Positions 12,147 to 51,043 of a DNA stretch of 64,000 bases are shown in pieces. The notes beneath the pieces were generated by a model, which was not told the origin of the DNA, did not search any database, and worked only from the letters and a program-made list of their open reading frames with translations. Every line of letters begins with the position of its first letter. The first letter of the stretch is position 1. The DNA lies in the NCBI GenBank assembly GCA_000165345.1, contig CM000432.1, positions 160,001 to 224,000 on the forward strand, written 5' to 3'. The position numbers and the translations under genes were made by a program.

Positions 12147-15100
12147 ATGAAAACGAATAGTTTTCATAGTGAGGAGGGTTTTTTTGGATTTTTGGGACAG
12201 ATGAATAAGAGTTTTGTGGGAGAGTTATGCTTGGAAGAATTAACAGAATCTGAAGAATCAGAAATTGAAGACACTGAAGTAATCAAAAATGAGGATGTAT
12301 TGAAACTAAGAGAATTAGAGACATTAAGAAGCATTCCTGTTTCAATTAAGCTTCCAAGTGATATTAATAATGATGGCTCGGAGGATGAATTGCTCTGTAA
12401 GAAGGAGAATAAAGCAAGGACAGAAGTAGCTCCAGGTTCCAATATTAAGGTAAATAGAGGTAGAGGAGGAAGTTCGAATTTGAATGGAATTAGTTTGGAA
12501 ACAATTGATACTGATGTGGAAAATGACTCAATTAAAGTAGAAATTTCTGAAAAGTTGTTAGAGCCAATGAGTAGAATTAGATCTGGTAATACTCAAGAAG
12601 GAGGTATATTTTGGGGGGAAAAAGATGAAAAGGATGAAAATTATGAAGATATGGGTTCAATTGATTCTGGATATTCGATTTTCGGGATTACTAGGCCCTT
12701 TACTAGTAATCTTTTAAAGGTAACTATGGAGGATGGAGATAGCGACAACGACTCTGAGGACGAATTGGAATACTTTCAAATGTCAGACAGTGAGAAGTTA
12801 ATGTTTAAGGTTAGATCTAAAATCAAGGGCGATCATTTTTTGGATGAGATATCCAACAAGATTTCAATATTTCCTTCGGATGAAAATAGTGCTCAAGGCG
12901 AATCTACTGAATTCTTTATACACATTGATACAAAGGATCCTGGTTTTTCAAAAAATTTAGGAGGAATATCTAAGGAGCTTAAGGAAAAGCTGGGATTAGA
13001 TAATTCATCAAAGAGTAATCTTGGAGTGGATTTGTTAGGAATTACGGACTCAATCACAAGAAATCAAGAAGTTAACACTATTGGATTAGGCGGAAAGGAA
13101 CAAGATCATAGTAAGGGAGAAGCTCAGCAGTCCTCCTCAGGAGGAGGTAGTGGCAATAATTGTAATACTGGTGGTAGCAGTAGCAGCAAACCTTTGAGCA
13201 AGGCACAACAAGAACGTCAAAGACGACAGAAAATGAAGAAAATAGATAAGCAAAAGCGTTTAGAGCTTGCAATTTTGGGAATGAATCCTTTAGATTACGA
13301 AGGTGGTATTAGAAATCCCGACAAAGTACTTGATGAAAATCAGGATTTGGTTGATATGAAGGATGGAGAGGATGGAAAAGTAGGAGAAAGCTCGGTTGGA
13401 GGTTCTTCATCTTATAATAGTGGAATAGCTGCCTTGGCTTCGTCCATATTAATGTCCAATATGCCTCAGAAGGATCGTATTTTTGGTTTAAAGCTTCGGG
13501 AAATGTCTTTGGATGATTCGTGTCTGTTTTCCATTCGTCAGTTTCTTCACTTGGTTCCGAGACTGTTTGATGGAAAATCATATGATGAGATTGATAATCT
13601 TTTTGAGGAGATACGGACTTCTATCGCTTCTTCTGGATCAAAGAATGAGAAACAAAGATCAAAACAAACATTTAAAAGTAGGAATGAATGGCAAAATCTA
13701 TTGATAAAGTGGCTTACTTATGTTGTTAAGTTCTCAGAAAGAAATGGAATTTCAATGTATGAATCTTGGGCAGAGAGTAATCGTCAATATCATGAAAGCA
13801 GAGTCTTACTAAATAGTTTGGGAAGTGGTTATGGTGAAGACGGGGGAGCTAATGGAGGAGATCAAATTGGAGGTGGAAATTCCTTACCTCCAATATCCTC
13901 TCTCCACACTCCCTTGGCATGGTCTTTTTATTTAGTTAGTGGAAATATGCTTCCAATCGATGGAGTTAGATTCCACAAATCAGATTTCAGAATGGGAATT
14001 TTTGAATCATTTTCATCAAAAACCAACCTAATTTATACATATTCGTCCAATTGGTTCGCCTCTCTAGTGAATTCTAAGAGTGTGAGATCTGAGTCAGGGT
14101 TTGAACCTTTTGGTCCTTGGTTGGTTACCCCTTTATTTCTTGGAGCTAAAGGGGGAGGAGGATCACAAGGACATTCTTCGACTCCTCAGCTTCTTCACAG
14201 ATATTTCCAAAGACAAAGAGAGTTCAAGGACATTCCTTCCAGCATCAATTCATCTATTTGTTTTGTTTCACCAGATGATTTATCTTTAATTCACCAGACT
14301 CCTGTTGCACTTTTTGAATATTTGGAGCAGTATCCACTTTTGCTAAATAATTTAGGAATGGCTGCTAGAATTCATAGATATGTAAGATGCGAGGATGATT
14401 CAAATCGAAAACAGATTGAAGATTTACTTTCAGAGTGTGGTCCTTTGGGATTTGTTCAAAAGGTTCAGGAAGATGCTAAAACCAGCGGATCCTCAACTTC
14501 ATCTCAATCTGGGACTTTCCCAAAGTTCTTTGGAGTGAACTATCCACTTGAAGAAAATGAGTCAATGGCAGTTTTAGAAACTGGTCTATTTAAAGCTCCA
14601 ATATACCATCATCCCAGAAGGCAAAGAAATCTCCAGGTTGGAGAAAATACTAATATGGAGGATGGAGGAGAGGCTTCCTTTATCAAAGATGATGAGGATG
14701 AGGAGGAGCGAGACAGAAGTGGGAAGGGGAAGTTTTCTGCATACTTTTTGTTGATAAGAAAGCAGATTCAACAAGGATCTTCAAAATGTGGGCTTTATTT
14801 AAGGCCTTTGTCTGGAGATTGTTTAACTTGTTTATATTCCGTTGGACAGGAAGAACCTCTGGTTGAAGTACCTTGTGTGGATAGTAAAAGCTTTTCCAAT
14901 CTAAGAAGGGATCAGTTGAAAGCTCTGGTGTTAAGGTATGCGAAGGAAAATGGGAAAGATACATTTAATGAGGTGAGAAAATTGAGTCAAAAAATGTTTA
15001 GAAATACTTTTGACCAAAATACTCTACAGAAGATTTTAATGTCTTGCAAGGAAACCAAGGAAAGTAGTGGAAGTGATTCCATTTCTGGAATAGGAGTTGG

Positions 15101-18044
15101 AGGATCCTCTGGAGCAGGAGGGCCTTCTTTGAGTTCTAACGGTAGCCATTCGAGTTTGCTTGGAGGAATTGGGGGAGGAGTTGTAGTAGGAACTGGGATT
15201 GGAGGCAGTAGCAGCCAATCAAGCATTCAGGTAGGAGGTGGAGGAGGATCAGGAGGTGGAGGAGTTCTGATCAAACAACTTAATGAATCGGAGCTGAGAC
15301 AAATAATTAATCCAGAATCTCTCTGTGCCTTAGATAGCTCTGTTTCAGGGGATATGAGACTTAAACAAATTGGAGTAAGGTCTTTAAGACACTTCTCGAA
15401 GATTCCTATTGTAGTAAGCGAGCTGGATCAGATGGAGGAGATTGCAAAACAGTATGCAGAACAAGCTAGAAAGAAGACTAACAGTCTGATAGAGAAAGCT
15501 AAAGAGACGGAAACCTGGAGTAAAGACTCTTCTATGGGTAAATCTTGTAAGTACTCATCCCTACTGAGCTTAATCAATGAGGTAAGTACTGGATTAATAA
15601 ACTCAAATGGAAGAAGGCTTACTCCTGTTGCTCGGTATATTGAAGAGTCACTTTTACTTTCTCCTTGGAACATTACACAAGAATATGGACAAGTAATGAG
15701 ACATCAGAATGGCCAATTTAGTATTGCAGGTATCGGAGATCCAAGTGGAGGAAGAGGAGAAGGTGTAAACTTTATAAGGAGAGGACTCATAGATTCTGCA
15801 ATAGAGTCTAGAAGTCAGAAAGCCTTGGCGGGGAAGAGTGAGGACCTTAGAAAGCTTTCAATGGATCAACTTAGACAAAGGCTTCTTCAATGTGGATTTG
15901 ATGATGTAGCAATTATTCCTCTCCCTAGATGGGATAGAGTAGCATTGGTTAGACATTTTGATACCAGCGGAGGAAATTCCAATGGGAAATCTGGAAGTGG
16001 GTCATCCTCAAACAGTATGCTTCAAAACAAAGCTTTATCTTCTGAGGAGTATCAAAGAGCTATAGTCAATGTATTAGTTAATCAAAAGAATGCTTTAAGT
16101 CCAGATGATCCAATAATGACCGATGATGAGGAGGAGGAAGAGGAGAGAAGAGGAGATGGCAGAGACGACGAATTAAGAGTAGAGGATGAAGGAGAAGTTG
16201 AAATGGAACTGGATATTTTATCTGAAAACACACCCAATAAGAGCGAGACTGAAGGTTCTAGAGGAGAGTTAAAACCTTCACAGGATGTTGATATGCTTGA
16301 ATCAATGTTGATTGACAGCTCCAATTCAAGATCGGATCTAGTAGTTTCACAAGACTCAAGTCCGAACCGAGATTTAGATGACTCAGGATCTGATCTGGAT
16401 GAAGATCTTGATCTTGAAGAATCCTTTATTTCCTCACTAGTTAAGTCTAATGACAATAACAACGAAAGTAACGAAAGAATTTCTGGGAAATATGAAGGAG
16501 ACAATGGTAACTATGATAATAGTAATTTAACAAGTGGAGATTATTCTAATAGTAAAGTTAAACATATGAAACAAAGCAAACTTTATGATCAGTTATACGG
16601 GAATTCAAACGATGATACTGGTAGAGATGAAGAGGATGAAAAAGACTTGGAAGAGTTTAGAAGAATGATTTCTAAGAGTACTCCTCAGGATGGTATAGAT
16701 CAAGAACTTGATGGAAGTGGAATGGATTGGAGGAATCAAAACTCACAAGAGGATTCTTCCTCTTCAAGTCAGGAATATGTTCCTAGAATAGCTTGGATAC
16801 GTGTTAGACGTAATATGAATACTTGGCAATATGAAGATGAAAAAGTTGTTTATATATATGGGGAAGAGAATATTAGATACTTCCTTTACTGGAGAAGGAT
16901 GAGAATGCAACTTAAAAGAGAGGAAAGACGTCAACTGAATCCCACAGGAGTTCCAGGAGTTTTGGGAAGAGCTAGCAGAACTTGTAGAAGATGTGGACAA
17001 GTTGGACACATTGCTTCAAATCCAATGTGTCCTTATTATGAGGGTAACAAGAGTAGTTCAGGAACAAGTAGGTATCAAAATGCAATTTCTCAGTCTAGAA
17101 AGAAGAATATGTTATTGCCAAAAGGCCTTGAGATTGGAGGAGGTATAGCTTCATGTAAATTGTCAGCTTCTGAAGAAGAAAGCACAATTGCAAATCTTTT
17201 GGGGATGGGGTACTCTCAAACAAATAATTGTGATATTAAACAGTTAGTAACTTTGGACAACGTGGTTCAGTCTGTAAGAGTTGGAAAACGAGGAAGGCCA
17301 CCTTCAAATCCTACATCTAACTCAAGGGGAGATACAGGATTGAGTAGTTCATCAATTGGGAATACCCAACTGAGTTCATCAAGTTTAGGAAACTTTGAAG
17401 ATTCTACTGAGACTCAAACAAATACACAAGCTGGTGTAGGAACGGGATCTTCAGTTCAATTCTCAAGGCTTTCTGCAAGACAAAGAAGAAAGATGATGGA
17501 TAATGATGATAAGAGCTCAGTTGTAAGCTTTACCAGTACTGCTTTAAATGGTGGCTCCCAGACATGTAACTTTAATAATGCTCTAAATCCTTCAAACGGA
17601 GGAGCTGGCTTACATATTTCAAATAACTTGGATGGATCCCATAACGTAATTAATGCAGGACCTAATATTACCTCCTACACTGAAGCTTTAGATGAATTTT
17701 GTATTGAACTTCAAAGAATTATTAATAGTACAAAAACTCTTCATCACTATTCACATGTATTTTGGAATAGGGTTAGTGAAAGAATTGCACCAAATTATTA
17801 TAATTTAGTTAAAAGGCCAATGTGGCTTCAATTAATGATAAATAAATGCAAAAAAAGGGAATACAAATCTAGAAAAGATTTCCAAGATGACTTGGACTTA
17901 ATAGTTGAGAACTGCAAGATTTATAATGGGGTAAATCATCCTCTTGTATCTGTTGCAACCTTAATACATTCAAATGTTGTAAAAAAGATTGATGAGATTC
18001 AAGGAATTGAAAAGATTGAAGCTTATTTATCACTAAAACCCTAG
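12147..18044 (+). CDS. TAF1-like TFIID subunit (zinc knuckle plus C-terminal bromodomain), 1965 aa with extensive low-complexity sequence
   Basis: A CCHC zinc knuckle (CRRCGQVGHIASNPMCPYY) resembles the TAF1 DUF3591 knuckle (CGACGAIGHMRTNKFCPLY). The C-terminal bromodomain is HYSHVFWNRVSERIAPNYYNLVKRPMWLQLMINKCKKREYKSRKDFQDDLDLIVENCKIYNG. The protein also has G/S-rich and acidic tracts. The start is an ATG at 12147. Confidence 0.55.
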   Translation: MKTNSFHSEEGFFGFLGQMNKSFVGELCLEELTESEESEIEDTEVIKNEDVLKLRELETLRSIPVSIKLPSDINNDGSEDELLCKKENKARTEVAPGSNIKVNRGRGGSSNLNGISLETIDTDVENDSIKVEISEKLLEPMSRIRSGNTQEGGIFWGEKDEKDENYEDMGSIDSGYSIFGITRPFTSNLLKVTMEDGDSDNDSEDELEYFQMSDSEKLMFKVRSKIKGDHFLDEISNKISIFPSDENSAQGESTEFFIHIDTKDPGFSKNLGGISKELKEKLGLDNSSKSNLGVDLLGITDSITRNQEVNTIGLGGKEQDHSKGEAQQSSSGGGSGNNCNTGGSSSSKPLSKAQQERQRRQKMKKIDKQKRLELAILGMNPLDYEGGIRNPDKVLDENQDLVDMKDGEDGKVGESSVGGSSSYNSGIAALASSILMSNMPQKDRIFGLKLREMSLDDSCLFSIRQFLHLVPRLFDGKSYDEIDNLFEEIRTSIASSGSKNEKQRSKQTFKSRNEWQNLLIKWLTYVVKFSERNGISMYESWAESNRQYHESRVLLNSLGSGYGEDGGANGGDQIGGGNSLPPISSLHTPLAWSFYLVSGNMLPIDGVRFHKSDFRMGIFESFSSKTNLIYTYSSNWFASLVNSKSVRSESGFEPFGPWLVTPLFLGAKGGGGSQGHSSTPQLLHRYFQRQREFKDIPSSINSSICFVSPDDLSLIHQTPVALFEYLEQYPLLLNNLGMAARIHRYVRCEDDSNRKQIEDLLSECGPLGFVQKVQEDAKTSGSSTSSQSGTFPKFFGVNYPLEENESMAVLETGLFKAPIYHHPRRQRNLQVGENTNMEDGGEASFIKDDEDEEERDRSGKGKFSAYFLLIRKQIQQGSSKCGLYLRPLSGDCLTCLYSVGQEEPLVEVPCVDSKSFSNLRRDQLKALVLRYAKENGKDTFNEVRKLSQKMFRNTFDQNTLQKILMSCKETKESSGSDSISGIGVGGSSGAGGPSLSSNGSHSSLLGGIGGGVVVGTGIGGSSSQSSIQVGGGGGSGGGGVLIKQLNESELRQIINPESLCALDSSVSGDMRLKQIGVRSLRHFSKIPIVVSELDQMEEIAKQYAEQARKKTNSLIEKAKETETWSKDSSMGKSCKYSSLLSLINEVSTGLINSNGRRLTPVARYIEESLLLSPWNITQEYGQVMRHQNGQFSIAGIGDPSGGRGEGVNFIRRGLIDSAIESRSQKALAGKSEDLRKLSMDQLRQRLLQCGFDDVAIIPLPRWDRVALVRHFDTSGGNSNGKSGSGSSSNSMLQNKALSSEEYQRAIVNVLVNQKNALSPDDPIMTDDEEEEEERRGDGRDDELRVEDEGEVEMELDILSENTPNKSETEGSRGELKPSQDVDMLESMLIDSSNSRSDLVVSQDSSPNRDLDDSGSDLDEDLDLEESFISSLVKSNDNNNESNERISGKYEGDNGNYDNSNLTSGDYSNSKVKHMKQSKLYDQLYGNSNDDTGRDEEDEKDLEEFRRMISKSTPQDGIDQELDGSGMDWRNQNSQEDSSSSSQEYVPRIAWIRVRRNMNTWQYEDEKVVYIYGEENIRYFLYWRRMRMQLKREERRQLNPTGVPGVLGRASRTCRRCGQVGHIASNPMCPYYEGNKSSSGTSRYQNAISQSRKKNMLLPKGLEIGGGIASCKLSASEEESTIANLLGMGYSQTNNCDIKQLVTLDNVVQSVRVGKRGRPPSNPTSNSRGDTGLSSSSIGNTQLSSSSLGNFEDSTETQTNTQAGVGTGSSVQFSRLSARQRRKMMDNDDKSSVVSFTSTALNGGSQTCNFNNALNPSNGGAGLHISNNLDGSHNVINAGPNITSYTEALDEFCIELQRIINSTKTLHHYSHVFWNRVSERIAPNYYNLVKRPMWLQLMINKCKKREYKSRKDFQDDLDLIVENCKIYNGVNHPLVSVATLIHSNVVKKIDEIQGIEKIEAYLSLKP

Positions 18045-22781: not shown

Positions 22782-24863
22782 TTAAGTTACTTGTTTATTT
22801 TCCTGTTCTGAAGTACCTTGTAGTTGTAATTCCTTTTCTGCCCGAGTGTTCACCAGAGATTCATTGGAATTAACATGATTTACCTGCTTTTGCAATCTAA
22901 CATTTGTATTATTAATGCTGTTGGACTGCATTTGACCTGTATTAGTTGTAGTGGTAGACAGACTTATATTATTTTGAAATTGATTTCCCAATACATTAGG
23001 ATTCGGAATAATTGAAGGCATAATTGGGGTATACGAACCCATAAAAGGCATAGTGTATCCATAAGGTGAGTACCAACCTGAATAAGCAGCAGCCATGGCA
23101 GCCATATAGTCTGCATGGTAATTACTTGGGATATTTGTACCACAAATAGTAATGCTAGAAGAAGGCATTGCTTTAGTTTCTTGTCCTGGCATAATTGCAC
23201 CATATTGATCTAATGTAGATTCAGCAATATTCTTTACAGTGTTGGAAGGAACAGTTTGAACAGAACCTTTAAAACTTCCAACATTCAAAGCAGCACATTG
23301 CAATTTTTCAGCATCCGATTCTTCTGATTTATTTGACTCTAATCCAGTAAAAGGGGCTAATCCATATTGTGAAAACAAAAATGGGTTTGCACGGATTGCA
23401 GCATTAGCATAATTACCACCTGAATTTGACGATATTGCAAGATTGGCAGCAGTTGCATACGCAACCTGTTGTTGCAAATAGTAATTTGCCATTTGAGCAT
23501 GCTGTAAAGCAACCAGAGTATTATAATCCATACCAACAAAAGGATTTGTGGAGGCAGCAGAAGAGCTTTGATCCATAAAAGTCGAGCTAAGCTGACTTTG
23601 ATTTGTAGGAAAGAAACTCAAGTCAGAAGAATCAAGAGTTTCTGTCTTAGAGTTAGGTTTAAATCTTTTAGATGATACTGTGGTTGTGCTGGTTGATGGG
23701 TTCATATATGCTCCTGTAGTCTGTCTCTCTACAAGACGATCGGAATCAATTTGGTTTGCCATAAGTGCCAAAAATAAATCATCAGAAGAAACATTTTCTC
23801 CAATTGTAGAAGCTACGGGAATTGTGGCGGAAAATTTAGATTCATTTTGGTTTGCATTAGAGCTCTGCTTATGCTTGGCTGTCACATATTCTCTGGCAGA
23901 TGTGATAGGGCTAGTAATCCCAGCAGCATTCCCTTCACTGCTATCCATTTTCTTAATAATCTCGCCATATAATGTCGCAGGATTAATATTAGAAGTATTA
24001 TAATGAGACCAAACCTCATCATCACTTTCAGGAGCAGGAAAATGAAGCATAATTCCTTTAGTTCTTCTTGCTTCCTTGAGCGCTTGAGACCCAACATAAG
24101 GTTCCTCCCCCTCTTCATCACTCTCAGAAAATCTAAAATGTTTTAGATGGCTTCTTCTATGCAATGGACTGTTAATCAACAAAAATCGAATGGCAGCCTT
24201 TTCTGCATCCCTAACAGTGGCGTATGGCTTGTTCGGCCCTACATAAAAACTCTTGGAATACTTTCTGGTAGCCCATGTAAACCTAGCATAAACCCTGCTT
24301 TCTTTATCTTTCCAATATACTCCAATTTGATTATATTTTAGCTGTCTTGAACCAGCCTCGTGATTTGCTGCCGAACGACGACCTGATTTAGAAGTGCTTT
24401 GTGTTGAATGCACTAACTCTTCAGCTCCTGTATCAATACTAATAGGATGAATATCAAAAGCAGATTGCTCTTCTGGCTTTTCTTTAGAATCTTTATTTGG
24501 AAGAACATCCTCCGTTTTTGAATCTTCAGTTTGTATATCTTCTGAGTTATTTACCCCAGCAACAGAAAGAACACTATTTGAATCACAAAGTTCATTAGTA
24601 GTTATAGTAGTTGTCAGACATGAATCGTCATCTTCAACGTAAGAACCACTTTTGCTAATTGTAATTGGCTTTGTAATATTATACTCATATATACCTGCAT
24701 TTGTAGCATCAATTGGAATGGTATTACCTTCTTGCCCCAAGTCCAAAAATACCTTTTGATCACTAGAAAGTGGATTCACAGCCTTAATCATTTTTGAGAA
24801 GTTTTCTTCTGCTTCGTTTTCCATCTTTTCTTGACTTACTCCTATTTCTAGTTGCCTTTCCAA
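22782..24863 (-). CDS. ApiAP2-domain transcription factor (single AP2 domain plus long low-complexity region)
   Basis: The AP2/ERF fold is recognisable in KYNQIGVYWKDKESRVYARFTWATRKYSKSFYVGPNKPYATVRDAEKAAIRFLL. The rest of the protein is S/T/N/Q-rich. The first codon at 24863 is TTG, not ATG; the first in-frame ATG is at 24825 (MENEAEEN), or there is an upstream exon. Confidence 0.6.
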   Translation of the reverse strand: MERQLEIGVSQEKMENEAEENFSKMIKAVNPLSSDQKVFLDLGQEGNTIPIDATNAGIYEYNITKPITISKSGSYVEDDDSCLTTTITTNELCDSNSVLSVAGVNNSEDIQTEDSKTEDVLPNKDSKEKPEEQSAFDIHPISIDTGAEELVHSTQSTSKSGRRSAANHEAGSRQLKYNQIGVYWKDKESRVYARFTWATRKYSKSFYVGPNKPYATVRDAEKAAIRFLLINSPLHRRSHLKHFRFSESDEEGEEPYVGSQALKEARRTKGIMLHFPAPESDDEVWSHYNTSNINPATLYGEIIKKMDSSEGNAAGITSPITSAREYVTAKHKQSSNANQNESKFSATIPVASTIGENVSSDDLFLALMANQIDSDRLVERQTTGAYMNPSTSTTTVSSKRFKPNSKTETLDSSDLSFFPTNQSQLSSTFMDQSSSAASTNPFVGMDYNTLVALQHAQMANYYLQQQVAYATAANLAISSNSGGNYANAAIRANPFLFSQYGLAPFTGLESNKSEESDAEKLQCAALNVGSFKGSVQTVPSNTVKNIAESTLDQYGAIMPGQETKAMPSSSITICGTNIPSNYHADYMAAMAAAYSGWYSPYGYTMPFMGSYTPIMPSIIPNPNVLGNQFQNNISLSTTTTNTGQMQSNSINNTNVRLQKQVNHVNSNESLVNTRAEKELQLQGTSEQENKQVT

Positions 24864-25358
24864 TTCGCTGATAAAGTTACTAACTAGAATGGCTAGTAAT
24901 ACCTTCTTTTTATCAAATAAATTGACTCAGAAATTAATAAATATTACACAGATCTCTGTTTATGATGTTTTCCTTAGTTTAACCAACACATAAAGAAACA
25001 CACACATTCACACTCCTGTGGGGTAGAAAATCTGGTTTTTCTTCGTGATTGAGCCACTTTTACTCACTTGACTAATCTTCACAGAAAGAGTAATGAACAC
25101 AAGTGCTATTACTTGATTAATAAAGTAAAAAAGCCAATCTATTGAATATTTTCTTCTTTTTTATTTTCTTGAATCTCCAAAATCTATTTATGAATTCTCA
25201 GTTCTAACCTGCTTTTCCTGCGAAAAAATGCTTATCACCTTACTCTCACTTCAAATTCCGCTCCTCCTACCCTGGTATCTTCACCAATATCTTCCTTTCT
25301 TGATCTTTTGGTTCAGAACCTATGGATTTTTATGAAATGAATGGTACCGATACCACAC

Positions 25359-25418
25359 GTGAGCAGATTTAGCATGCTATTAATGTGGGCAACACGTGGA
25401 TAGGGCGGTAAAAATTGA
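25359..25418. promoter_or_regulatory. Paired CACGTG boxes flanking a GCATGC core, followed by GGGCGGTAAAA, in the 1.6 kb AP2/PNO divergent intergenic region
   Basis: In ccacacgtgagcagatttagcatgctattaatgtgggcaacacgtggatagggcggtaaaaa, the two CACGTG boxes lie 38 bp apart, with GCATGC between them and an E2F-like GGGCGG downstream. Confidence 0.4.
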
Positions 25419-26504
25419 ATCCAATAATTTTATTTTATCTAACGTATAGTAATCTTCTTACTAATTATAATAAATTATTAATTTCAAATATATATATTTA
25501 TAATATACTTTTTCACAGATTTCACTGGCCAGACTTTTATTTATTTTTTCCCCCCAAAAAATTATAATTGCATTTTTTGTTCCGATTTTTTTTTTTGAAA
25601 AAATATTTTAAAATTGAAAAAGTAATAAAAAAAAATTTCACACGTCATTCATTTCTGATTTATCCTAAAAAATATTTTCGTATCATTTTTGCTTATGTGT
25701 CGGTATATTTACCGGACTGTCCACATAACACATACGTGTTTTTTTCCCCATGCATACATGCATGCGAAACATTACATGCAATATATTTGTTTAGAGTTTA
25801 GTATAAAGCACAATAATTTTTTTTAAAATATTCGCAAGTCCTACGTAATCTGTAAGTGAAACAAATTTCTTTTAGCTATTAAATTTAGAAGATATTTTAC
25901 TTATGTTTAGTACAAAATCTATTTTTATAGGATAATAAAAATAAATTCTTTACACTTGAATTTCTATAATTTTTTGTTTTAACTAATTTGATAGTTTATG
26001 AAAAAATGGTAGCTATTATATTTCCACCAAAATTTGAATTCAAATTTCAATTAGAAAAAAAAACTATTTACTTATCCAGATCTGTTCACAAGTATAACTT
26101 AAACCAAATAAAGGTATTTAGATGAGCTCTTTTCTACTGTTCTATTATATTTTAAAGAAAAACAAATAATTAGCTTAATCATTTTACTTCACAAATAATC
26201 TAATAATTTAATCGTAAAATTTAAAAAATAACTTTTAGCGGCAAAAATAGTCAAACATGTCGAGGGAGGGGACACATTGAGATTTTTGACTTCTCGTAAA
26301 AAAGTAAAGAATCGAGAATGAGGGAAAGGAATTAAATAAAAGAAAATCATTATTAAGAATTATTAAAACATTGAACAAAATTTGAGAAGTATCCCTATTT
26401 AAATAGAATAAAGACCGACACGTTTTATAATACTATGAATAAGGCCCGAAAGTAAGAAAAGAAAGAATTGTAAAGTATATTAGGATTGATAAATAACATT
26501 TACT

Positions 26505-29500
26505 ATGGGTGAAAAAGAAATAGTAGATGGGTGTGTAGCTGCTTGCCACATTGCATATGCTTGCTCTGAGGTGGCATTTACATATCCAATCACTCCCTCT
26601 AGTACAATTTCTGAGGTCGCAGACTCATGGATGTCTCGTGGACGACGAAATATTTTTGATCAAGTTGTATCAGTTGTTGAAATGCAGAGCGAAATGGGTT
26701 CTGCAGGCGCATTACATGGATCTTTGTCTGTTGGTTGCTCCACAACAACTTTTACTGCTTCACAAGGGTTATTGTTAATGATTCCAAATATGTACAAAAT
26801 TGCTGGTGAGCTTTGGCCATGCGTATTTCATGTTACAGCCAGAGCTATCGCTACATCTTCACTCTCTATTTTCGGAGACCACAATGATATTATGGCTGCC
26901 AGACAAACTGGCTGGGCTTTTTTGGGAGCTATGACAGTACAGGAAGTTATGGATTTGGCATTGGTCTCACATGTGAGTACATTTGAGTGTAGCGTTCCCT
27001 TTGTTAACTTCTTTGATGGATTCAGAACATCTCACGAATTACAGAAAATTGATATGATTAGTTATGAAACTATTAAGAAGATTTTTCCATATGAAAAACT
27101 TAAAGAGTTCAGAGAAAGAGCATTAAATCCAACACACCCAACTCTAAGAGGTACCGCTACAAGCTCGGATGTCTATTTTCAACTTGCTGAGGCAAGAAAT
27201 AAATATTACGAATCTACTCCAGATATTGTTCAGAGTGTTATGGACCGTTTGGCTAAATTGATTGGTAGAAGCTATCACCTTTTTGACTACTATGGCCACC
27301 CTGATGCTGAGTTTTTAATCGTTGTAATGGGTTCAGGCGGTCTCACAATTGAGGAGATGATTGATTATCTAATGGAGAAGAGTAATGAAAAGGTTGGCAT
27401 GATCAAGGTTAGGCTTTTTAGACCTTGGTCTATTGATGCTTTTGTTAAAAAGATTCCAAAGACTACGAAAAGAATTACTGTTTTGGAAAGGTGCAAAGAA
27501 AGTGGCTCTCTTGGTGAACCACTTTGTCTGGATGTATCTACCAGCATTATGAGATCCGAACTTTCTAGTAATAATATTTTGGTATTAGGTGGAAGATATG
27601 GTCTAGCAAGCAAAGAGTTTACTCCAGGAATGGCTTTAGCAGTCTGGGAAAACATGATAAGTGAAAAACCAATCAATAATTTCTCTGTTGGAATTGATGA
27701 CGATGTCACATTTAAATCTCTCTTTGTTAGGCAACCAAGGTTGGATTTACTTACTAGCGAAACTAAGCAATGCCTCTTTTGGGGTCTCGGCTCTGATGGT
27801 ACCGTTTCTGCTAATAAAAATGCTATCAAGATCATTGGAGAGTCTACAGATCTTCAGGTTCAGGGTTACTTTGCATATGATGCAAAGAAAGCTGGCGGAG
27901 CTACCATGAGCCATCTTAGGTTTGGCCCAAAACCCATTAAATCTGCCTATTTACTTCAAAGATGTGATTATGTTGCAGTACACCACCCATCATATGTTCA
28001 CAAGTTTGATGTATTAGAGAATATTAAGCAAGGTGGTTGCTTCGTACTTAATTGCCCTTGGAGTACATTGGAGGAGCTTAATCATGAGCTTCCTTCGAAG
28101 ATCAAACATCAAATTGCATCTAGAGATGTTAAATTCTACGTTATTGACGCTCAAAGGATTGCTCAGGAGTCTAATCTTGGAAGAAGAATTAATAATATAC
28201 TTATGGTTGTCTTTTTCAGTTTGACAAATATCATTCCCTTAGACCTCGCAATTAAGCTTGTAAAGGAAGCAATTAAAAAAACATACGGAAAAAAGGGAGA
28301 TGCTGTTGTTAATTCCAACTGGAAGGCTGTTGACCTTACCTTAGAGTCTTTGATTCAGATATCGTATGACAAGTCTCAGTGGATAAGCAAAGACAAATGC
28401 GGAGAAAAATCACTTCCAGCTACAGCTGTTGAAACGGGGAATAAAGACCAAGAAATAACTAAATCCACAGTTCTAAAGCAAAAACCGGAACATGACGTAA
28501 ATCAATTCGTAAAAGATATATTAGGACCAGTTAATGCCTTAAAAGGAGACGAACTTCCGGTTTCTATGTTTGATCCTACCGGCACTGTTCCTCTTGGTAC
28601 TACTGCATATGAAAAAAGAGGCATTGCCATGTCCATTCCTATTGTTGATATGAATAAATGCACTCAGTGCAATTATTGTTCAATAGTCTGTCCACATGCA
28701 GCCATTCGTCCATTCTTATTAGATGAGGCAGAATTTAAGAATGCACCCGAAACAATGCATATACCAAAAGCCAAGGGCGGTCAGGAATTCTCATCATATT
28801 ACTATCGAATTCAGGTAACTCCACTTGATTGTACTGGTTGTGAGTTATGCGTACATGCATGCCCGGATGATGCACTTCATATGGAAGGCCTGCAAAAGAT
28901 GGAAGCAGTGGAGAAAACTCACTGGGATTATTTAATTGGTCTTCCAAATAAGGCTGAAAAGTTTGATAGAACAACAGTAAAGGGTTCACAGTTCCAGCAA
29001 CCTCTTCTTGAGTTTTCTGCAGCATGCGAAGGATGCGGAGAAACACCTTATGTAAAGTTATTGACACAACTTTTTGGCGAAAGAATGGTTATAGCAAATG
29101 CAACAGGTTGCTCTTCAATTTGGGGAGCATCTTATCCTTCAGTACCATATACAAAGAACCAGAAAGGATATGGACCAGCTTGGGGTAATTCTCTTTTTGA
29201 AGATAATGCGGAATACGGATTAGGAATGGTTGTAGGATATAGACAAAGAAGGGATAGATTTAGAGAGTTAGTTTCCAATGAGATTTTGAAGGATATTACT
29301 GAAGAGGAAGAGTTTTTAAAAGATGACAACGCCTCAGTTCAAGGTAGGAACGAGATTATTACTAAATATGATCATTTGAAGGATTATTTAAGGTCTTGGC
29401 TTAAGAACATTAGGAATGGTGAAGCATGCCAGAGCTTATTTGAAGAAATATCAAAGTTGCTTGAGGATAATTTGATTAATAGTAATAATTTTGCTCAGGT

Positions 29501-32309
29501 ATTGAAAAAAGACCGAATTGAACTCTTAGAAAAGCTTTATGATTCTAGAGATTTGATACCAAAGATTAGCCATTGGATTGTTGGTGGAGATGGCTGGGCT
29601 TACGATATTGGATATGCCGGTCTTGACCATGTTTTATCATTTGGAGAGGATGTAAATATCATAATTTTGGATACTGAGGTATATTCTAATACAGGAGGTC
29701 AAGCTTCTAAGAGTACTCCTTTTGGTGCTATAGCAAAGTTTGCTCAGAGTGGTAATTTGAGACAAAAGAAGGATATCGGATCTATTGCAATGGAATATGG
29801 ATCAGTATATGTTGCATCCGTTGCTTTAGGAGCAAACTACTCACAAACTATCAAATCTTTGCTAGAGGCTGAGAAATACCCAGGAACATCTTTGATTGTA
29901 GCTTATTCAACTTGTATTGAACATGGTTACACTAAATATAATCTCCAACAAGAAAGTGTTAAGCTTGCAGTAGAAAGTGGATACTGGCCTTTGTATCGAT
30001 ATAATCCAGAGCTGGTACGAACCGAAGTTGTGGATAACCTAACAACAATAGTATCTTCTGGGTTTACCTTAGATTCCAAAAAAGTTAAGGTTGATATAGA
30101 GAACTTCCTAAAGAGGGAGAACCGTTTCTTGCAATTAATAAGGAGTAACCCAGAATTGGCTTCAATGGCAAAAGATAAGTTAAAGGCTCATTCAGACAAA
30201 AGGTTCCAGAAGATGAAGGACATGTCTGAGAATGTCACAGTAACAGCTTTGAAAGATCAAATAAAGAAACTTAAGGATCAATTGATTTCCATTCAAAATG
30301 CAAGCAAAACCGGCGAATTAGCTGCAAGTGGTTTAATTAATGCAGATTTATTCATTGAACAAGAAATGCATGTATTATACGGTACCGAAACAGGAAATTC
30401 AGAAGAGGTTGCACAGTATATACAGAGCCAGTTGGTATCAAGAGGATATTCATCCAGCTCATTGAATTTAGATGATTTGGATATTGATGAGTTTTTGAAT
30501 CCAGATAAGTTTTCTACAGTGATAATTGTTACAAGTACTTCAGGACAGGGAGAGTTTCCAGGATCATCAGGAATTTTATACGAGGCTTTGCTTAAGAAAC
30601 ACTTGGAGAATCAGGATGACAAGTTCTGTAGTTTTATGAGATTTGGAATATTTGGTTTAGGTGATTCCAACTACGTTTTCTTCAATGAAGCAGCAAAAAA
30701 ATGGGACAAACTTTTGTTAGATTGTGGAGCAGTTAGAATTGGAGCAGTGGGAATGGGAGATGATCAATCAGAAGAAAAATACGAAACTGAGCTAATTGAA
30801 TGGCTACCAGATTATTTACAATTGATTAATGCTCCAGAACCAAAGCATGATGAGAAGAGTGAGATTCCAAAAGCAACTACTTTTAAAGTGACAATACTGG
30901 ACTCTTGTAGAAATGATATATTAAATGAATCAACTGGTACTTTATGTGAGAAATTGGATGAAAATAATAATATTGGGAATTCACATTATAAGCCAATAAT
31001 TCCTCCAAATTCAGTTTTACTTCCCGTAATAGAAAATAAGAGAATAACAAATCAAGATTATGATAAGGATGTAAGACATATAGTATTTAAATTAATTGGT
31101 GATGGAGGTGATACTCCATCTCTTTCTTATTGTTTGGGAGATAGTTTAGCATTGTATGGTCAAAATCCAGTAAATGAAGCAATTAAAGCTATAGAAATGT
31201 TTGGTTATAATCCGTATAGTTTGCTTAGGTTGAGTATAAATGAAGAAAATGAGGCAAATAATACAAATAAAGTAAATCAGAGATACAGTTCATTATTTGG
31301 ATATGATATAACTGTGTTGCAATTATTTGTGGAATGCTTGGATCTTTGGGGAAAGCCTAATCGCAAGTTTTTCCAGGAATTTTATCGTTATTGTAGTAAC
31401 CCAGAAGAGAAGATTCAAGCAAAGAAGTGGGCACAGAATGAAGGGAAGAAACTAATTGAAGAGTTTTCATCAAAAACTGGGACATATTTGGATGTATTTA
31501 AAATGTTCGAATCAGCAAGACCAACTCTTGCTCAGCTTTTAGATATCGTACCTTTCATAAAGTCGAGATCATATTCAATAGCTTCTTGTAATAAATTTGT
31601 AAATGGAGAAAAAATTGAACTTTGTGTAGGAATAGTGGACTGGAAGCTTGAATCAGGTGAGATTAGGTATGGCCAATGCACAGGTTTCTTAAATAGATTA
31701 CCGATACTAGATTCAGAATCAAAAATAGACAGTATTCCTAGACTTCCTTCAAATATTAAAGCAAGCGCTTTCAACTTACCTTTTGATTATAGATCGCCGG
31801 TTATTATGGCTTGTATGGGCACTGGAATTGCACCTTTTAGAGCCTTTGTTCAGAATAAAAAGTACATTAGAGATGTATTAAAAGAAGAAATTGGACCAGT
31901 AATATTATATTTTGGTTGTAGATATTATGATAATGACTATTTATACCGTGAAGAGCTTGAGAATTATGTAAAGGAAGGGGTTATTACTTCTTTGAATATT
32001 GCATTTTCTAGAGATCCAAAGGGGTATAAGACATCAAATTGCGAGAATATTAGATATGCACAAAAGATGTATGTACAACATCTGATGCTTGAGAATAGTC
32101 AAGAAATTTACGAGAATATGATAGAAAAATGTGGTTACTTTTACCTTTGCGGTACTAAACAGGTTCCTATTGATATTAGGAAGGCAATAATCCAGATAAT
32201 TATTAAACACAGCTCCACAACAGAGCAGGTAACCTCTGAAGAAGATGCTAATAGTATTTTGAATAGTATTCAGATAATGGGTAGATATAATGTCGAAGCC
32301 TGGTCATAG
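26505..32309 (+). CDS. PNO: Pyruvate:NADP+ oxidoreductase (PNO): pyruvate:ferredoxin oxidoreductase fused to an NADPH-cytochrome P450 reductase-like module
   Basis: PFOR signatures are the N-terminus MGEKEIVDGCVAACHIAYACSEVAFTYPITPSS, two 4Fe-4S ferredoxin motifs (CTQCNYCSIVCP and CTGCELCVHACP) and the TPP box GGDGWAYDIGYAGLDHV. After a linker at about aa 1280-1320 there is a flavodoxin/FMN domain (HVLYGTETGNSEEVAQ, FGLGDSNY), an FAD domain (RSYSIASC) and an NADPH domain (CMGTGIAPFRAF...CGT). It is a single 1934-aa ORF with an ATG start. Confidence 0.9.
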   Translation: MGEKEIVDGCVAACHIAYACSEVAFTYPITPSSTISEVADSWMSRGRRNIFDQVVSVVEMQSEMGSAGALHGSLSVGCSTTTFTASQGLLLMIPNMYKIAGELWPCVFHVTARAIATSSLSIFGDHNDIMAARQTGWAFLGAMTVQEVMDLALVSHVSTFECSVPFVNFFDGFRTSHELQKIDMISYETIKKIFPYEKLKEFRERALNPTHPTLRGTATSSDVYFQLAEARNKYYESTPDIVQSVMDRLAKLIGRSYHLFDYYGHPDAEFLIVVMGSGGLTIEEMIDYLMEKSNEKVGMIKVRLFRPWSIDAFVKKIPKTTKRITVLERCKESGSLGEPLCLDVSTSIMRSELSSNNILVLGGRYGLASKEFTPGMALAVWENMISEKPINNFSVGIDDDVTFKSLFVRQPRLDLLTSETKQCLFWGLGSDGTVSANKNAIKIIGESTDLQVQGYFAYDAKKAGGATMSHLRFGPKPIKSAYLLQRCDYVAVHHPSYVHKFDVLENIKQGGCFVLNCPWSTLEELNHELPSKIKHQIASRDVKFYVIDAQRIAQESNLGRRINNILMVVFFSLTNIIPLDLAIKLVKEAIKKTYGKKGDAVVNSNWKAVDLTLESLIQISYDKSQWISKDKCGEKSLPATAVETGNKDQEITKSTVLKQKPEHDVNQFVKDILGPVNALKGDELPVSMFDPTGTVPLGTTAYEKRGIAMSIPIVDMNKCTQCNYCSIVCPHAAIRPFLLDEAEFKNAPETMHIPKAKGGQEFSSYYYRIQVTPLDCTGCELCVHACPDDALHMEGLQKMEAVEKTHWDYLIGLPNKAEKFDRTTVKGSQFQQPLLEFSAACEGCGETPYVKLLTQLFGERMVIANATGCSSIWGASYPSVPYTKNQKGYGPAWGNSLFEDNAEYGLGMVVGYRQRRDRFRELVSNEILKDITEEEEFLKDDNASVQGRNEIITKYDHLKDYLRSWLKNIRNGEACQSLFEEISKLLEDNLINSNNFAQVLKKDRIELLEKLYDSRDLIPKISHWIVGGDGWAYDIGYAGLDHVLSFGEDVNIIILDTEVYSNTGGQASKSTPFGAIAKFAQSGNLRQKKDIGSIAMEYGSVYVASVALGANYSQTIKSLLEAEKYPGTSLIVAYSTCIEHGYTKYNLQQESVKLAVESGYWPLYRYNPELVRTEVVDNLTTIVSSGFTLDSKKVKVDIENFLKRENRFLQLIRSNPELASMAKDKLKAHSDKRFQKMKDMSENVTVTALKDQIKKLKDQLISIQNASKTGELAASGLINADLFIEQEMHVLYGTETGNSEEVAQYIQSQLVSRGYSSSSLNLDDLDIDEFLNPDKFSTVIIVTSTSGQGEFPGSSGILYEALLKKHLENQDDKFCSFMRFGIFGLGDSNYVFFNEAAKKWDKLLLDCGAVRIGAVGMGDDQSEEKYETELIEWLPDYLQLINAPEPKHDEKSEIPKATTFKVTILDSCRNDILNESTGTLCEKLDENNNIGNSHYKPIIPPNSVLLPVIENKRITNQDYDKDVRHIVFKLIGDGGDTPSLSYCLGDSLALYGQNPVNEAIKAIEMFGYNPYSLLRLSINEENEANNTNKVNQRYSSLFGYDITVLQLFVECLDLWGKPNRKFFQEFYRYCSNPEEKIQAKKWAQNEGKKLIEEFSSKTGTYLDVFKMFESARPTLAQLLDIVPFIKSRSYSIASCNKFVNGEKIELCVGIVDWKLESGEIRYGQCTGFLNRLPILDSESKIDSIPRLPSNIKASAFNLPFDYRSPVIMACMGTGIAPFRAFVQNKKYIRDVLKEEIGPVILYFGCRYYDNDYLYREELENYVKEGVITSLNIAFSRDPKGYKTSNCENIRYAQKMYVQHLMLENSQEIYENMIEKCGYFYLCGTKQVPIDIRKAIIQIIIKHSSTTEQVTSEEDANSILNSIQIMGRYNVEAWS

Positions 32310-41536: not shown

Positions 41537-43603
41537 ATGTTATTTCACCTAGGAGCGCTAACATGGTTGAGTTTATTTGCTCATTATGCAAAGCTTCAAA
41601 TGGATTCTATTGATTTTTCAGGAACCTCAGACCAAGATGAGTGCAGTATCCAATGTAATTTAAATTTTTTCCCATATTGTGCAACAAATGGGGTAACTTA
41701 TATAAATGAATGTTTTTATATGAGAGCAAGATGTTTAGATCCAAAAATTCAATTACAAAAGATGCCAGGAATACCATGTGGATTACTTGGATCAATGGAT
41801 GCAACTAAATATACTGGATGTGAGAAAGGGTGTGCTCCAGTAGAGTTTCCATATTGTGGTACAAATGGTGTAACTTATATAAATAACTGTGCATTGGATA
41901 TAGCTATGTGCGAAGATGCAAACATTCAATTGGCAAGATTACCAGGTTTAGCGTGTGGAAGTGAGACTAAATTTTCTATTTCAACTTCAGAATGCGAAGG
42001 ATTATGTTCAGAGCATTATATTCCCTATTGTGGTTCTGATGGAAAAACATATATTAATTATTGTGAATTTAGAAAGTCTAGATGCAGAGATCCAACTCTA
42101 TCAATTGTTGGTTTTCCAGGATTACCTTGTGAGAGTCAGATTTACGATGAAAAAGTTATTATTCAACAGACAAGAAAAATTGAATGTTTAAGAAAAAATA
42201 AATGTTCATCTATATTAATACCAATATGTGGATCAGATGGTGTAACTTATAGGAACCCATGCGAATTTAAGAGAGCAAGATGTAGAGATCCTAGTTTAAG
42301 AAGAGCAAATATACTTTTACCTTGTGGGAGTAAAATATCTGATGGTGTTGAAAATATTATTGATAAAATGCCAAATACTACATCAACTGGAATTCATAAA
42401 TCATGTTGGTTTAAATGTACTAAAGTATGGGAATATCCATTATGTGGTTCAGATGGTATAACTTATAGTAGTTATTGTGAAATGAGAAATGCTTTATGTT
42501 TGGATCCAGATTTAAGACTTGTCAAAATTCCTGGAGTGAAATGTTCAGGTGATTTTCAATTTACTAATCCAATAGAAATTGATAAATGCAGGGATGATTG
42601 CCCATTTGGTAAGACATTATCATATATATGTGGAAGTGATAATAAGACATATTTTAGTTACTGTGAATTTAGTAATGAAATGTGTAGAAATCCTGAATTA
42701 TATTTAGCAAAGCCTATGGGATTTCCATGTAGAGAGGAAGATAGAAATAAAGATCTGGAATCTGTAGCTAAAGAGTATCAGACTATGGATGAGGTATATT
42801 TTGGCATTACAAATTTCAAATCTAATGCTTTTGAGGAAAAGATTGAAGAATCAAGAATGACAGAAAATTCTGTTATTGTAATAAATAATGCAAATTTACA
42901 AGAAGAAATCAGAAATGGAATAGAAAAGAATTCTGGTTTATTATTTGATAATAAAATTTACAATAGTAATAATTATAACCATATTGAGACTAATAATACA
43001 TTACATAAGAATATTACTAATATGCTTGGCTATGAGGTTCATATGTTAAATCATGGATTAGAGACAACTAATTGTGAATTTGATTGTAGTCATTCACCTA
43101 GAATGGCTCATTGTGGCAGTAATATGTTAACATATCCTTCAGGATGTGCATTTCATAGAGATCAATGTAGAAATCCAAAATTACAGCTTGTTGCAGAGCC
43201 AGGAATACCATGCTCAGAATTGGGAAATTTTAGGATTACTCAAGAAAAGATGCAGGAATGTTTGAGGGATTGTACTCATTCTCAGAAAGTTTATCATTGT
43301 TTGAATACTGGAGAAACTATATATAGTTATTGTGAATTTCTTTATCTACAATGTTTAATTTCTGGATATAGAATAATTGGACATGCGGGAATTCCATGTG
43401 ATGATATAAGTGAATACAGGTATTATAAGAAATCATCAAATGAGAGTTCTATTGATAATAGTAAAACAAATGATTTTAATGTTGGTGGTGGTGATTATCT
43501 TGAAAATAAAGAACGTGAATTTCAGAAGAAGATCAGAGAAATGCTTAATGAGATACCTTCTTATGAATATACTGGTTTAAATAGAATCAATCACAATTAT
43601 TAG
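41537..43603 (+). CDS. Secreted multi-domain Kazal-type serine protease inhibitor (~8 Kazal-like domains)
   Basis: It has a signal peptide (MLFHLGALTWLSLFAHYAKLQ). Kazal cores of the form C-x(6,7)-C-G-[ST][ND]G-x-T-Y-x-[NS]-x-C-x(6)-C recur, for example CNLNFFPYCATNGVTYINECFYMRARC, CAPVEFPYCGTNGVTYINNCALDIAMC, CSEHYIPYCGSDGKTYINYCEFRKSRC, CSSILIPICGSDGVTYRNPCEFKRARC, CTKVWEYPLCGSDGITYSSYCEMRNALC and CPFGKTLSYICGSDNKTYFSYCEFSNEMC. Confidence 0.8.
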   Translation: MLFHLGALTWLSLFAHYAKLQMDSIDFSGTSDQDECSIQCNLNFFPYCATNGVTYINECFYMRARCLDPKIQLQKMPGIPCGLLGSMDATKYTGCEKGCAPVEFPYCGTNGVTYINNCALDIAMCEDANIQLARLPGLACGSETKFSISTSECEGLCSEHYIPYCGSDGKTYINYCEFRKSRCRDPTLSIVGFPGLPCESQIYDEKVIIQQTRKIECLRKNKCSSILIPICGSDGVTYRNPCEFKRARCRDPSLRRANILLPCGSKISDGVENIIDKMPNTTSTGIHKSCWFKCTKVWEYPLCGSDGITYSSYCEMRNALCLDPDLRLVKIPGVKCSGDFQFTNPIEIDKCRDDCPFGKTLSYICGSDNKTYFSYCEFSNEMCRNPELYLAKPMGFPCREEDRNKDLESVAKEYQTMDEVYFGITNFKSNAFEEKIEESRMTENSVIVINNANLQEEIRNGIEKNSGLLFDNKIYNSNNYNHIETNNTLHKNITNMLGYEVHMLNHGLETTNCEFDCSHSPRMAHCGSNMLTYPSGCAFHRDQCRNPKLQLVAEPGIPCSELGNFRITQEKMQECLRDCTHSQKVYHCLNTGETIYSYCEFLYLQCLISGYRIIGHAGIPCDDISEYRYYKKSSNESSIDNSKTNDFNVGGGDYLENKEREFQKKIREMLNEIPSYEYTGLNRINHNY

Positions 43604-46723: not shown

Positions 46724-51043
<4,320 letters not shown>

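Follow-up and report, generated by a model that had tools for sequence, protein, structure and literature searches.

Pyruvate:NADP+ oxidoreductase (PNO; EC 1.2.1.51) from Euglena gracilis is a biochemically characterised member of a family of fusion enzymes. The Cryptosporidium parvum enzyme, CpPNO (Swiss-Prot Q968X7), was reportedly described by Rotte et al. in 2001. In PNO fusions, NADP+ rather than ferredoxin serves as the electron acceptor (PMC6856725, PMC6732389). As described in the same literature, the Euglena enzyme has the fusion order that we find at the locus analysed here, with pyruvate:ferredoxin oxidoreductase (PFOR) followed by FMN-, FAD- and NADPH-binding domains, and the same proposed electron path to NADP+. 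Structurally characterised relatives of the two halves are the bacterial homodimeric PFORs of Moorella thermoacetica (6cin) and Desulfovibrio/Desulfocurvibacter africanus (1b0p, 7plm), which pass their electrons to a free ferredoxin or flavodoxin, and the microsomal NADPH-cytochrome P450 reductases (CPRs) of rat (1amo) and human (3qe2).

The window, by which we mean the whole 64,000-nucleotide stretch of DNA that was analysed, contains an ATG-initiated open reading frame of 1934 codons plus stop on the forward strand (26505..32309, +), and both the ORF listing and the translation of the window show zero internal stops. In a protein database search, the translated product matched EAK87662.1, QOY41958.1, WKS77261.1 and WRK32070.1 exactly. 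These entries carry the name 'pyruvate:ferredoxin oxidoreductase/NADPH-cytochrome P450 reductase PNO [Cryptosporidium ...]', and the first two are annotated as C. parvum PNO. A single 1934-aa gene is likewise called on the 1.1-Mb contig CP029783.1 of the C. parvum assembly GCA_031892065.1, and the gene thus marks the window as C. parvum DNA. The protein falls into one shared 90% cluster with Q968X7, 'Pyruvate dehydrogenase [NADP(+)], CpPNO', to which it is identical at 1932 of 1934 residues; K388N and D690E are the only differences from the isolate that was cloned originally. The window ORF equals CpPNO (Q968X7, AAK48421, EAK87662) in length, architecture and genomic neighbours, and we consider the two to be the same gene. 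We conclude, with a probability of about 94%, that the ORF is the nuclear, intron-less gene for C. parvum PNO (pyruvate dehydrogenase [NADP+], EC 1.2.1.51; CpPNO), and we found no evidence contradicting this identification. The preliminary description of this DNA had proposed a PFOR-CPR fusion encoded in a single 1934-aa ORF, which is borne out by the identity with C. parvum PNO database entries. As a gene that is already described and annotated, it is ordinary and adds no new biology.

The neighbouring genes are eukaryotic, encoding TAF1-like, NAP, ASF1, topoisomerase II and peroxiredoxin proteins, and the GC content is ~30%. We rejected a bacterial origin or contamination on the basis of these chromatin and replication neighbours, the GC content and the exact match to C. 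parvum assemblies. Two minus-strand ORFs lie within the gene (27365-27835 and 28735-29067), which we take to be chance ORFs in a strongly conserved coding region. Scans for tRNA and Rfam RNA genes across the window found none.

Pfam and PDB searches delimit a complete PFOR of the homodimeric type, with domains I–VI, at aa 1-1243. POR_N, PFOR_II, POR, EKR, two copies of Fer4 and TPP_enzyme_C score above the gathering score, in this order. Against solved PFORs, this half gives E = 0, with residues 3-1170 of 6cin_A aligning to aa 4-1242. Domain I (POR_N, PF01855, E = 9.7e-70), which binds the TPP pyrimidine, covers aa 17-246 (26553..27242, +), the 6cin_A alignment running from residue 3. It is followed by domain II (PFOR_II, PF17147, E = 1.2e-09) at aa 268-364 (27306..27596, +), by the gamma-like domain III with the CoA-binding region (POR, PF01558, E = 2e-33) at aa 429-612 (27789..28340, +), and by domain IV (EKR, PF10371, E = 3.5e-19) at aa 659-708 (28479..28628, +). 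The ferredoxin-like domain V (Pfam Fer4, Fer4_7; aa 712-790; 28638..28874, +) holds two CxxCxxCxxxCP motifs for the medial and distal [4Fe-4S] clusters: CTQCNYCSIVCP at aa 719-730, with the cysteines C719/722/725/729, and CTGCELCVHACP at aa 776-787, with C776/779/782/786. Domain VI (29025..29927, +), the TPP diphosphate-binding fold, contains the TPP_enzyme_C match (aa 1023-1131), the cysteines of the proximal [4Fe-4S] cluster and the TPP box GGDGWAYDIGYAGL (aa 1027-1040), whose GDG corresponds to G1028-D1029-G1030. Both ferredoxin-type motifs and the TPP box are thus present as first reported, but the enzyme has three [4Fe-4S] clusters and not the two then counted: the ligands of the third, TPP-proximal cluster (C841, C844, C869 and C1137) had been missed. 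All 12 cluster cysteines and the GDG are invariant in an alignment of 24 sequences, of which 21 are fused PNOs and 3 are PFORs from bacteria.

Compared with the bacterial homodimeric PFORs, the window protein is 52-55% identical across the whole PFOR part and shares their domain order, three [4Fe-4S] sites, TPP site and N-terminal start. It differs in lineage-specific insertions (aa 644-659, 931-948 and 993-1004) and in its C-terminal continuation: the bacterial chains end at the position corresponding to aa 1243, whereas the window protein runs on into the fused reductase. We also considered whether the PFOR half is nearer to its bacterial counterparts than to the other PNOs of eukaryotes. 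This idea was dropped: identity is ~54-55% to Moorella-type PFORs and equally to gregarine or Chromera PNOs, a level at which simple identity is uninformative.

The two modules are joined by a 44-aa linker at aa 1244-1287 (30234..30365, +), bounded by the end of PFOR homology at aa 1243, where the three bacterial PFORs in the alignment also end, and by the first flavodoxin strand, 'MHVLYGTETGN', which begins at aa 1288. The linker had earlier been placed ~40 aa too far downstream, at aa 1280-1320 (~nt 30300-30500), a stretch that encloses the flavodoxin motif quoted at the same time (aa 1292-1304). Within it, aa 1251-1279 (TVTALKDQIKKLKDQLISIQ...) form an insertion specific to Cryptosporidium, which at least 70% of the PNOs from outside the genus lack. 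With 43-73% identity within the genus, compared to 73-91% for the PFOR part, the linker is the least conserved part of the protein, as might be expected if two adjacent genes for a PFOR and a CPR-like reductase had been joined only by an assembly or sequencing error, or by an unrecognised boundary at the linker. The window ORF, however, shows neither a stop nor a frameshift there, four contigs from independent assemblies (1.1-Mb contigs included) encode this same 1934-aa product, and the independently cloned Q968X7 gives the same fused product. Moreover, the linker is in frame in the aligned Cryptosporidium orthologues, and the in-frame fusion is kept in at least nine other Cryptosporidium species as well as in gregarine and Chromera PNOs. 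At the level of the sequence, the existence of two separate genes is already refuted, and we regard its probability as practically nil. A split gene or an intron at the linker was ruled out by the continuous ORF and the cross-species in-frame fusion.

The remainder of the chain (aa 1288-1934) is a diflavin reductase, complete with FMN, FAD and NADPH domains, and has the CPR-type Trp-Ser as its last two residues (aa 1933-1934). Flavodoxin_1, FAD_binding_1 and NAD_binding_1 score above the gathering score in this half; the domain search recovered every Pfam family named in advance, the N-terminal PFOR set and then the C-terminal reductase set. The FMN-binding, flavodoxin-like domain (PF00258, E = 9.1e-27) lies at aa 1290-1433 (30372..30803, +) and aligns with the CPR FMN domain. 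The FAD-binding domain with its connecting domain (PF00667, E = 3.5e-33) spans aa 1502-1728 (31008..31688, +), where RSYSIAS (aa 1688-1694) corresponds to 'RYYSIAS' of CPR. The NADPH-binding domain (PF00175, E = 9.3e-09) occupies aa 1768-1886 (31806..32162, +) and contains GTGIAPFRAF, AFSR and CG. All reductase motifs quoted at the outset can be located in the translation: YGTETGNSEEVAQ at aa 1292-1304, RSYSIASC at aa 1688-1695 and GTGIAPFRAF at aa 1772-1781.

The module is related to CPR and to other diflavin reductases (CysJ, the reductase domain of NOS, MSR and BM3). NADPH-cytochrome P450 reductases match across aa 1288-1934 with E = 1e-57 to 1e-60, while the CysJ chains give weaker matches (E about 1e-35; 4e-35), mostly over aa 1661-1925. 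This agrees with the initial assignment to the CPR/sulfite-reductase flavoprotein family, the CPR match (~1e-60) beating that to the sulfite reductase flavoprotein (~1e-35), and we rejected CysJ as the identity of the module because CPR is its best match. Neither of the two findings that had been named as fatal to the fusion, an ORF split at the linker or a C-terminal half unlike this family, was encountered.

The match to rat and human CPR is full-length, beginning with the FMN domain and reaching the C-terminal Trp-Ser, with FMN, FAD and NADPH motifs in common. The FMN phosphate loop is kept (YGTETGN in the window protein, YASQTGT in CPR), as are RxYSIAS, GTGxAPF, the Ser-Arg of AFSR with the following Lys, the active-site Cys of CG and the terminal Trp. 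In rat CPR, this Ser-Arg and Lys bind the 2'-phosphate of NADPH. The alignment to 3fjo_A reaches the final residue and pairs 'NVEAWS' of the window protein with 'SLDVWS', placing a Glu at the position of the CPR catalytic Asp. Further differences from CPR are insertions at aa 1468-1489 and aa 1839-1851, the latter a Cryptosporidium-specific segment of 13 aa directly after the NADPH 2'-phosphate Ser-Arg. CPR alignments start at CPR residues ~17-82, past the N-terminal membrane anchor, and these correspond to query aa 1287-1288; what lies upstream in the window protein is PFOR and linker. A microsomal CPR proper was rejected on this account: the protein has no membrane anchor and is not free-standing, carrying PFOR on its N-terminal side instead, and the module is CPR-like without being CPR. 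The direction of electron flow would also be reversed relative to CPR (Fe-S to FMN to FAD to NADP+).

PFOR and CPR enzymology, together with the Euglena enzyme, suggest how the fused modules may cooperate. Pyruvate and CoA would be converted to acetyl-CoA and CO2 by TPP-dependent oxidative decarboxylation, and the two electrons would leave singly along the chain of Fe-S clusters (proximal, medial, distal). From there they would move to the fused FMN and on to FAD, which would pool them and pass them to NADP+ as a hydride, such that the reductase module would run opposite to the usual CPR direction and soluble ferredoxin would not be required. We infer CoA-dependent pyruvate oxidation with NADP+ as acceptor from the conserved NADPH 2'-phosphate residues (AFSR...K) and the literature; for the C. 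parvum protein itself, both the direction of catalysis and the specificity for NADP+ are assigned by homology and by analogy to the Euglena enzyme. The Glu at the position of the CPR catalytic Asp and the 13-aa insertion beside the 2'-phosphate Ser-Arg are the sequence features that weigh on the other side.

The fusion might instead work mainly reductively, with electrons from NADPH passing through FAD, FMN and the Fe-S clusters to drive acetyl-CoA carboxylation as a pyruvate synthase, or its physiological role might be to reduce other acceptors with NADPH, nitazoxanide and similar drugs among them. PNO has been considered as a target for nitazoxanide, whose mode of action is undefined (PMC10079235). 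The C-terminal module is also a bona fide CPR-type module, from a family that normally oxidises NADPH, and PFORs are, by textbook accounts, reversible in principle. On textbook grounds, however, net pyruvate synthesis would be thermodynamically unfavourable because NADPH (~-320 mV) is ill suited to reducing the acetyl-CoA + CO2/pyruvate couple (~-500 mV). Furthermore, C. parvum is a glycolytic parasite without pyruvate dehydrogenase (PDH; PMC5146892, PMC8051059) and therefore needs pyruvate oxidation for acetyl-CoA. We consider either of these roles very unlikely. In the favoured oxidative direction, CpPNO would supply cytosolic acetyl-CoA and NADPH in a parasite that has no PDH complex. Published accounts place the Cryptosporidium enzyme in the cytosol, in place of PDH (PMC5146892, PMC8051059), and an annotated carbon-metabolism map includes PNO, all enzymes of this map but ACC having been detected in the sporozoite proteome (bioRxiv 10.64898/2026.01.20.700507).

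The N-terminus bears on where this reaction takes place. Reviews describe the Euglena PNO as mitochondrial (PMC6856725, PMC8611851), in contrast to the Cryptosporidium protein, which lacks an N-terminal extension and is reported to be cytosolic. Only 26 residues precede the YPITPSS anchor. Bacterial PFORs have 25-27 there, and most PNOs from outside Cryptosporidium whose N-terminus is intact have 36-155. The 26 residues include four acidic (D/E) and one basic (K/R). Stop codons occur in frame 5 and 6 codons before the ATG, and an unspliced N-terminal extension is therefore impossible; these stops and the alignment with bacterial PFOR starts rule out a hidden one. An organelle-targeted PNO of the Euglena type was likewise rejected, given the short acidic N-terminus without a presequence and the upstream stops. 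Import into the mitosome through a cryptic or internal signal, reminiscent of the mitochondrial Euglena enzyme, would fit with the longer leaders of other PNOs, some of which are possibly targeting peptides. Nevertheless, the bacterial-type length, the acidic composition and the upstream stops all speak against it, as does the immunolocalisation of Cryptosporidium PNO to the cytosol that PMC5146892 cites from Ctrnacta et al. 2006. We judge such import to be extremely unlikely. The original proposal that the enzyme has no N-terminal extension and is hence cytosolic is supported by the same length, acidity and literature (PMC5146892).

Orthologues of 1932-1983 aa occur in C. hominis, tyzzeri, meleagridis, ubiquitum, canis, felis, xiaoi, ryanae and muris, and our protein search retrieved fused homologues from gregarines, Chromera and many environmental eukaryote assemblies. 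The preliminary view of a taxonomically restricted fusion, known from Cryptosporidium, Euglena and a few other protists, is thus out of date, in line with the statement of Gould et al. 2019 that PNO is 'widespread among eukaryotes' (PMC6732389).

In intestinal Cryptosporidium, which lacks the PDH complex, PNO is the sole route from pyruvate to acetyl-CoA. Nitazoxanide, the one drug with FDA approval against cryptosporidiosis, is discussed as possibly acting on this enzyme (PMC10079235). Judged from alignment gaps, the Cryptosporidium-specific insertions (the amphipathic, helix-like stretch of the linker, aa 1251-1279, and the 13 residues of aa 1839-1851) and the Asp-to-Glu replacement could confer a property absent from other PNOs. 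We consider this unlikely; if true, altered oligomerisation, localisation or nucleotide preference, or a selectively druggable interface between the modules, would be possible.

The open reading frame at 26505..32309 (+) runs uninterrupted from an ATG start through 1934 codons to a stop. Its product, PNO, is the pyruvate:NADP+ oxidoreductase of Cryptosporidium parvum, in which a pyruvate:ferredoxin oxidoreductase (PFOR) is fused to a reductase resembling NADPH-cytochrome P450 reductase (CPR). The coordinates and length in the preliminary description hold, and every motif it quoted is found in the translation: the 4Fe-4S motifs CTQCNYCSIVCP (aa 719–730) and CTGCELCVHACP (aa 776–787), the TPP box GGDGWAYDIGYAGL (aa 1027–1040), the flavodoxin motif YGTETGNSEEVAQ (aa 1292–1304), RSYSIASC (aa 1688–1695) and GTGIAPFRAF (aa 1772–1781). 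The exact sequence occurs among public proteins as EAK87662.1, QOY41958.1, WKS77261.1 and WRK32070.1, all named ‘pyruvate:ferredoxin oxidoreductase/NADPH-cytochrome P450 reductase PNO’ from Cryptosporidium parvum. This match confirms the proposed fusion, and nothing was found that splits the frame or removes the C-terminal half from the CPR family. Swiss-Prot Q968X7 (PNO_CRYPV, CpPNO, AAK48421) shares a 90% cluster with the window protein and differs from it at two residues, K388N and D690E. The gene is thus the known, annotated and repeatedly discussed PNO and not a discovery.

Assembly GCA_031892065.1 also calls PNO as a single 1934-aa gene, within a 15.8-kb stretch (181034–196838) of the 1,107,646-bp contig CP029783.1, and its neighbours there match those in the window. 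These neighbours are eukaryotic: diphthamide synthase, an XPA-like protein, a bromodomain-bearing TAF1-like protein, NIP7, NAP, peroxiredoxin, a seven-Kazal protein, ASF1, topoisomerase II, Yip1 and UDPGP. The GC content is ~30%.

Several other features of the window deserve mention. Two very large ORFs lie next to each other: 4601–11893 (+) encodes 2430 aa with one fn3 domain, and 12147–18044 (+) encodes 1965 aa with DUF3591 and a bromodomain, and looks TAF1-like. The divergent ORF upstream of PNO, 22782–24863 (−), encodes a Ser-, Thr- and Asn-rich protein of 693 aa, in which QIGVYWKDKESRVYARFTWATRKYSKSFYV...AEKAAIRFLL resembles, by eye, an AP2-type DNA-binding domain; because the ORF has no Pfam match even at E ≤ 1, this assignment stays putative. 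Between this ORF and the PNO start lies an AT-rich gap of ~1.6 kb (24864–26504), which looks long compared with the other inter-ORF gaps of the window and contains no ORF >77 aa and no tRNA or Rfam match. At 41537–43603 (+), a possibly secreted 688-aa protein carries seven Kazal-type serine protease inhibitor domains (Pfam Kazal_2, E = 4e-43). The 1439-aa ORF at 46724–51043 (+) repeats a 24-nt unit, which codes for (EEEERLRK)n, ~53 times in tandem (48911–50193) and also contains a shorter related array (47842–48054) and Asn-rich tracts; a Pfam search of this ORF gave no match. Its repeat accounts for the extreme purine skew at 48–50 kb (GC skew 0.74, AT skew 0.48).

A Pfam scan of PNO placed the following domains, all above gathering scores and in this order: POR_N (aa 17–246), PFOR_II (aa 268–364), POR (aa 429–612), EKR (aa 659–708), two Fer4 motifs (aa 712–790), TPP_enzyme_C (aa 1023–1131), Flavodoxin_1 (aa 1290–1433), FAD_binding_1 (aa 1502–1728) and NAD_binding_1 (aa 1768–1886). 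In a search of solved structures, aa 4–1242 matched Moorella thermoacetica PFOR (6cin_A, residues 3–1170, E = 0), and aa 1288–1934, up to the final residue, matched CPRs (3fjo, 1amo, 3qe2 and others, E = 1e-57 to 1e-60); CysJ-type sulfite reductase flavoprotein was a clearly poorer match (4e-35).

We aligned 21 fused homologues with three bacterial PFORs. The C-termini of all three bacterial proteins align with aa 1243, and aa 1288 is where the first flavodoxin strand (MHVLYGTETGN) starts; the linker therefore comprises aa 1244–1287 (nt 30234–30365). Its earlier placement at aa 1280–1320 was ~40 aa off and overlapped the flavodoxin motif quoted alongside it. The two ferredoxin-type motifs stand, but the count of two Fe-S clusters does not: the four cysteines of a third, TPP-proximal cluster (C841, C844, C869 and C1137) are present, and none of the 12 cluster cysteines varies among the aligned sequences, nor does the GDG box. 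When aligned to CPR, the reductase half retains the FMN phosphate loop, RxYSIAS, GTGxAPF, the CG cysteine and the terminal Trp-Ser, whereas the catalytic Asp of CPR is replaced by Glu. The Ser-Arg of AFSR is kept too, as is the Lys that follows it; in rat CPR these residues bind the 2'-phosphate of NADPH.

The N-terminus is short: the conserved YPITPSS anchor is preceded by 26 residues, compared to 25–27 in bacterial PFORs, which bears out the proposed absence of an N-terminal extension; PNOs from outside Cryptosporidium with intact N-termini mostly have 36–155. Because in-frame stop codons precede the ATG by 5 and 6 codons, a longer N-terminus would require splicing. The first 26 residues include four acidic and one basic, an acidic makeup unlike that of a typical matrix-targeting peptide. 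A cytosolic location of Cryptosporidium PNO is stated in PMC5146892 (citing Ctrnacta et al. 2006) and in PMC8051059. Together with the short acidic N-terminus, these statements support the likely cytosolic location suggested earlier.

Fused orthologues of 1932–1983 aa and 68–99% identity occur in C. tyzzeri, hominis, meleagridis, ubiquitum, canis, felis, xiaoi, ryanae and muris, and the linker is in frame across the whole genus. Remoter fused homologues, at 40–48% identity, come from gregarines (Blabericola, Gregarina), Chromera velia and numerous environmental or transcriptome assemblies, so that a restriction of the fusion to Cryptosporidium and Euglena no longer holds. Gould et al. 2019 (PMC6732389) describe PNO as ‘widespread among eukaryotes’. 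The best unfused matches are Moorella-/Thermanaeromonas-type bacterial PFORs (52–53% identity over 64% of the query). Since the PFOR part alone is equally similar (~54–55% identity) to bacterial PFORs and to gregarine and Chromera PNOs, simple identity is uninformative on its origin. Compared to other PNOs, those of Cryptosporidium carry insertions at aa 644–659, 931–948, 993–1004 and 1468–1489; an amphipathic, helix-like linker segment at aa 1251–1279 (30252–30341); and 13 residues at aa 1839–1851 (32019–32057), directly behind the NADPH 2'-phosphate-binding Ser-Arg.

All cofactor sites are found, and conserved, within one chain. From PFOR and CPR enzymology and reviews on the fusion (PMC6732389, PMC6856725), TPP-dependent oxidative decarboxylation would convert pyruvate and CoA to acetyl-CoA and CO2; electrons would travel one at a time along the three [4Fe-4S] clusters, then via FMN to FAD, and be delivered to NADP+ as hydride, bypassing soluble ferredoxin. 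By analogy, we infer that the C. parvum orthologue is probably specific for NADP+. According to PMC5146892 and PMC8051059, Cryptosporidium lacks the PDH complex and PNO takes its place. A 2026 sporozoite proteome detected all enzymes of its carbon-metabolism map except ACC, PNO included (bioRxiv 10.64898/2026.01.20.700507). PNO marks the window taxonomically and bears on drug-target work (PMC10079235).
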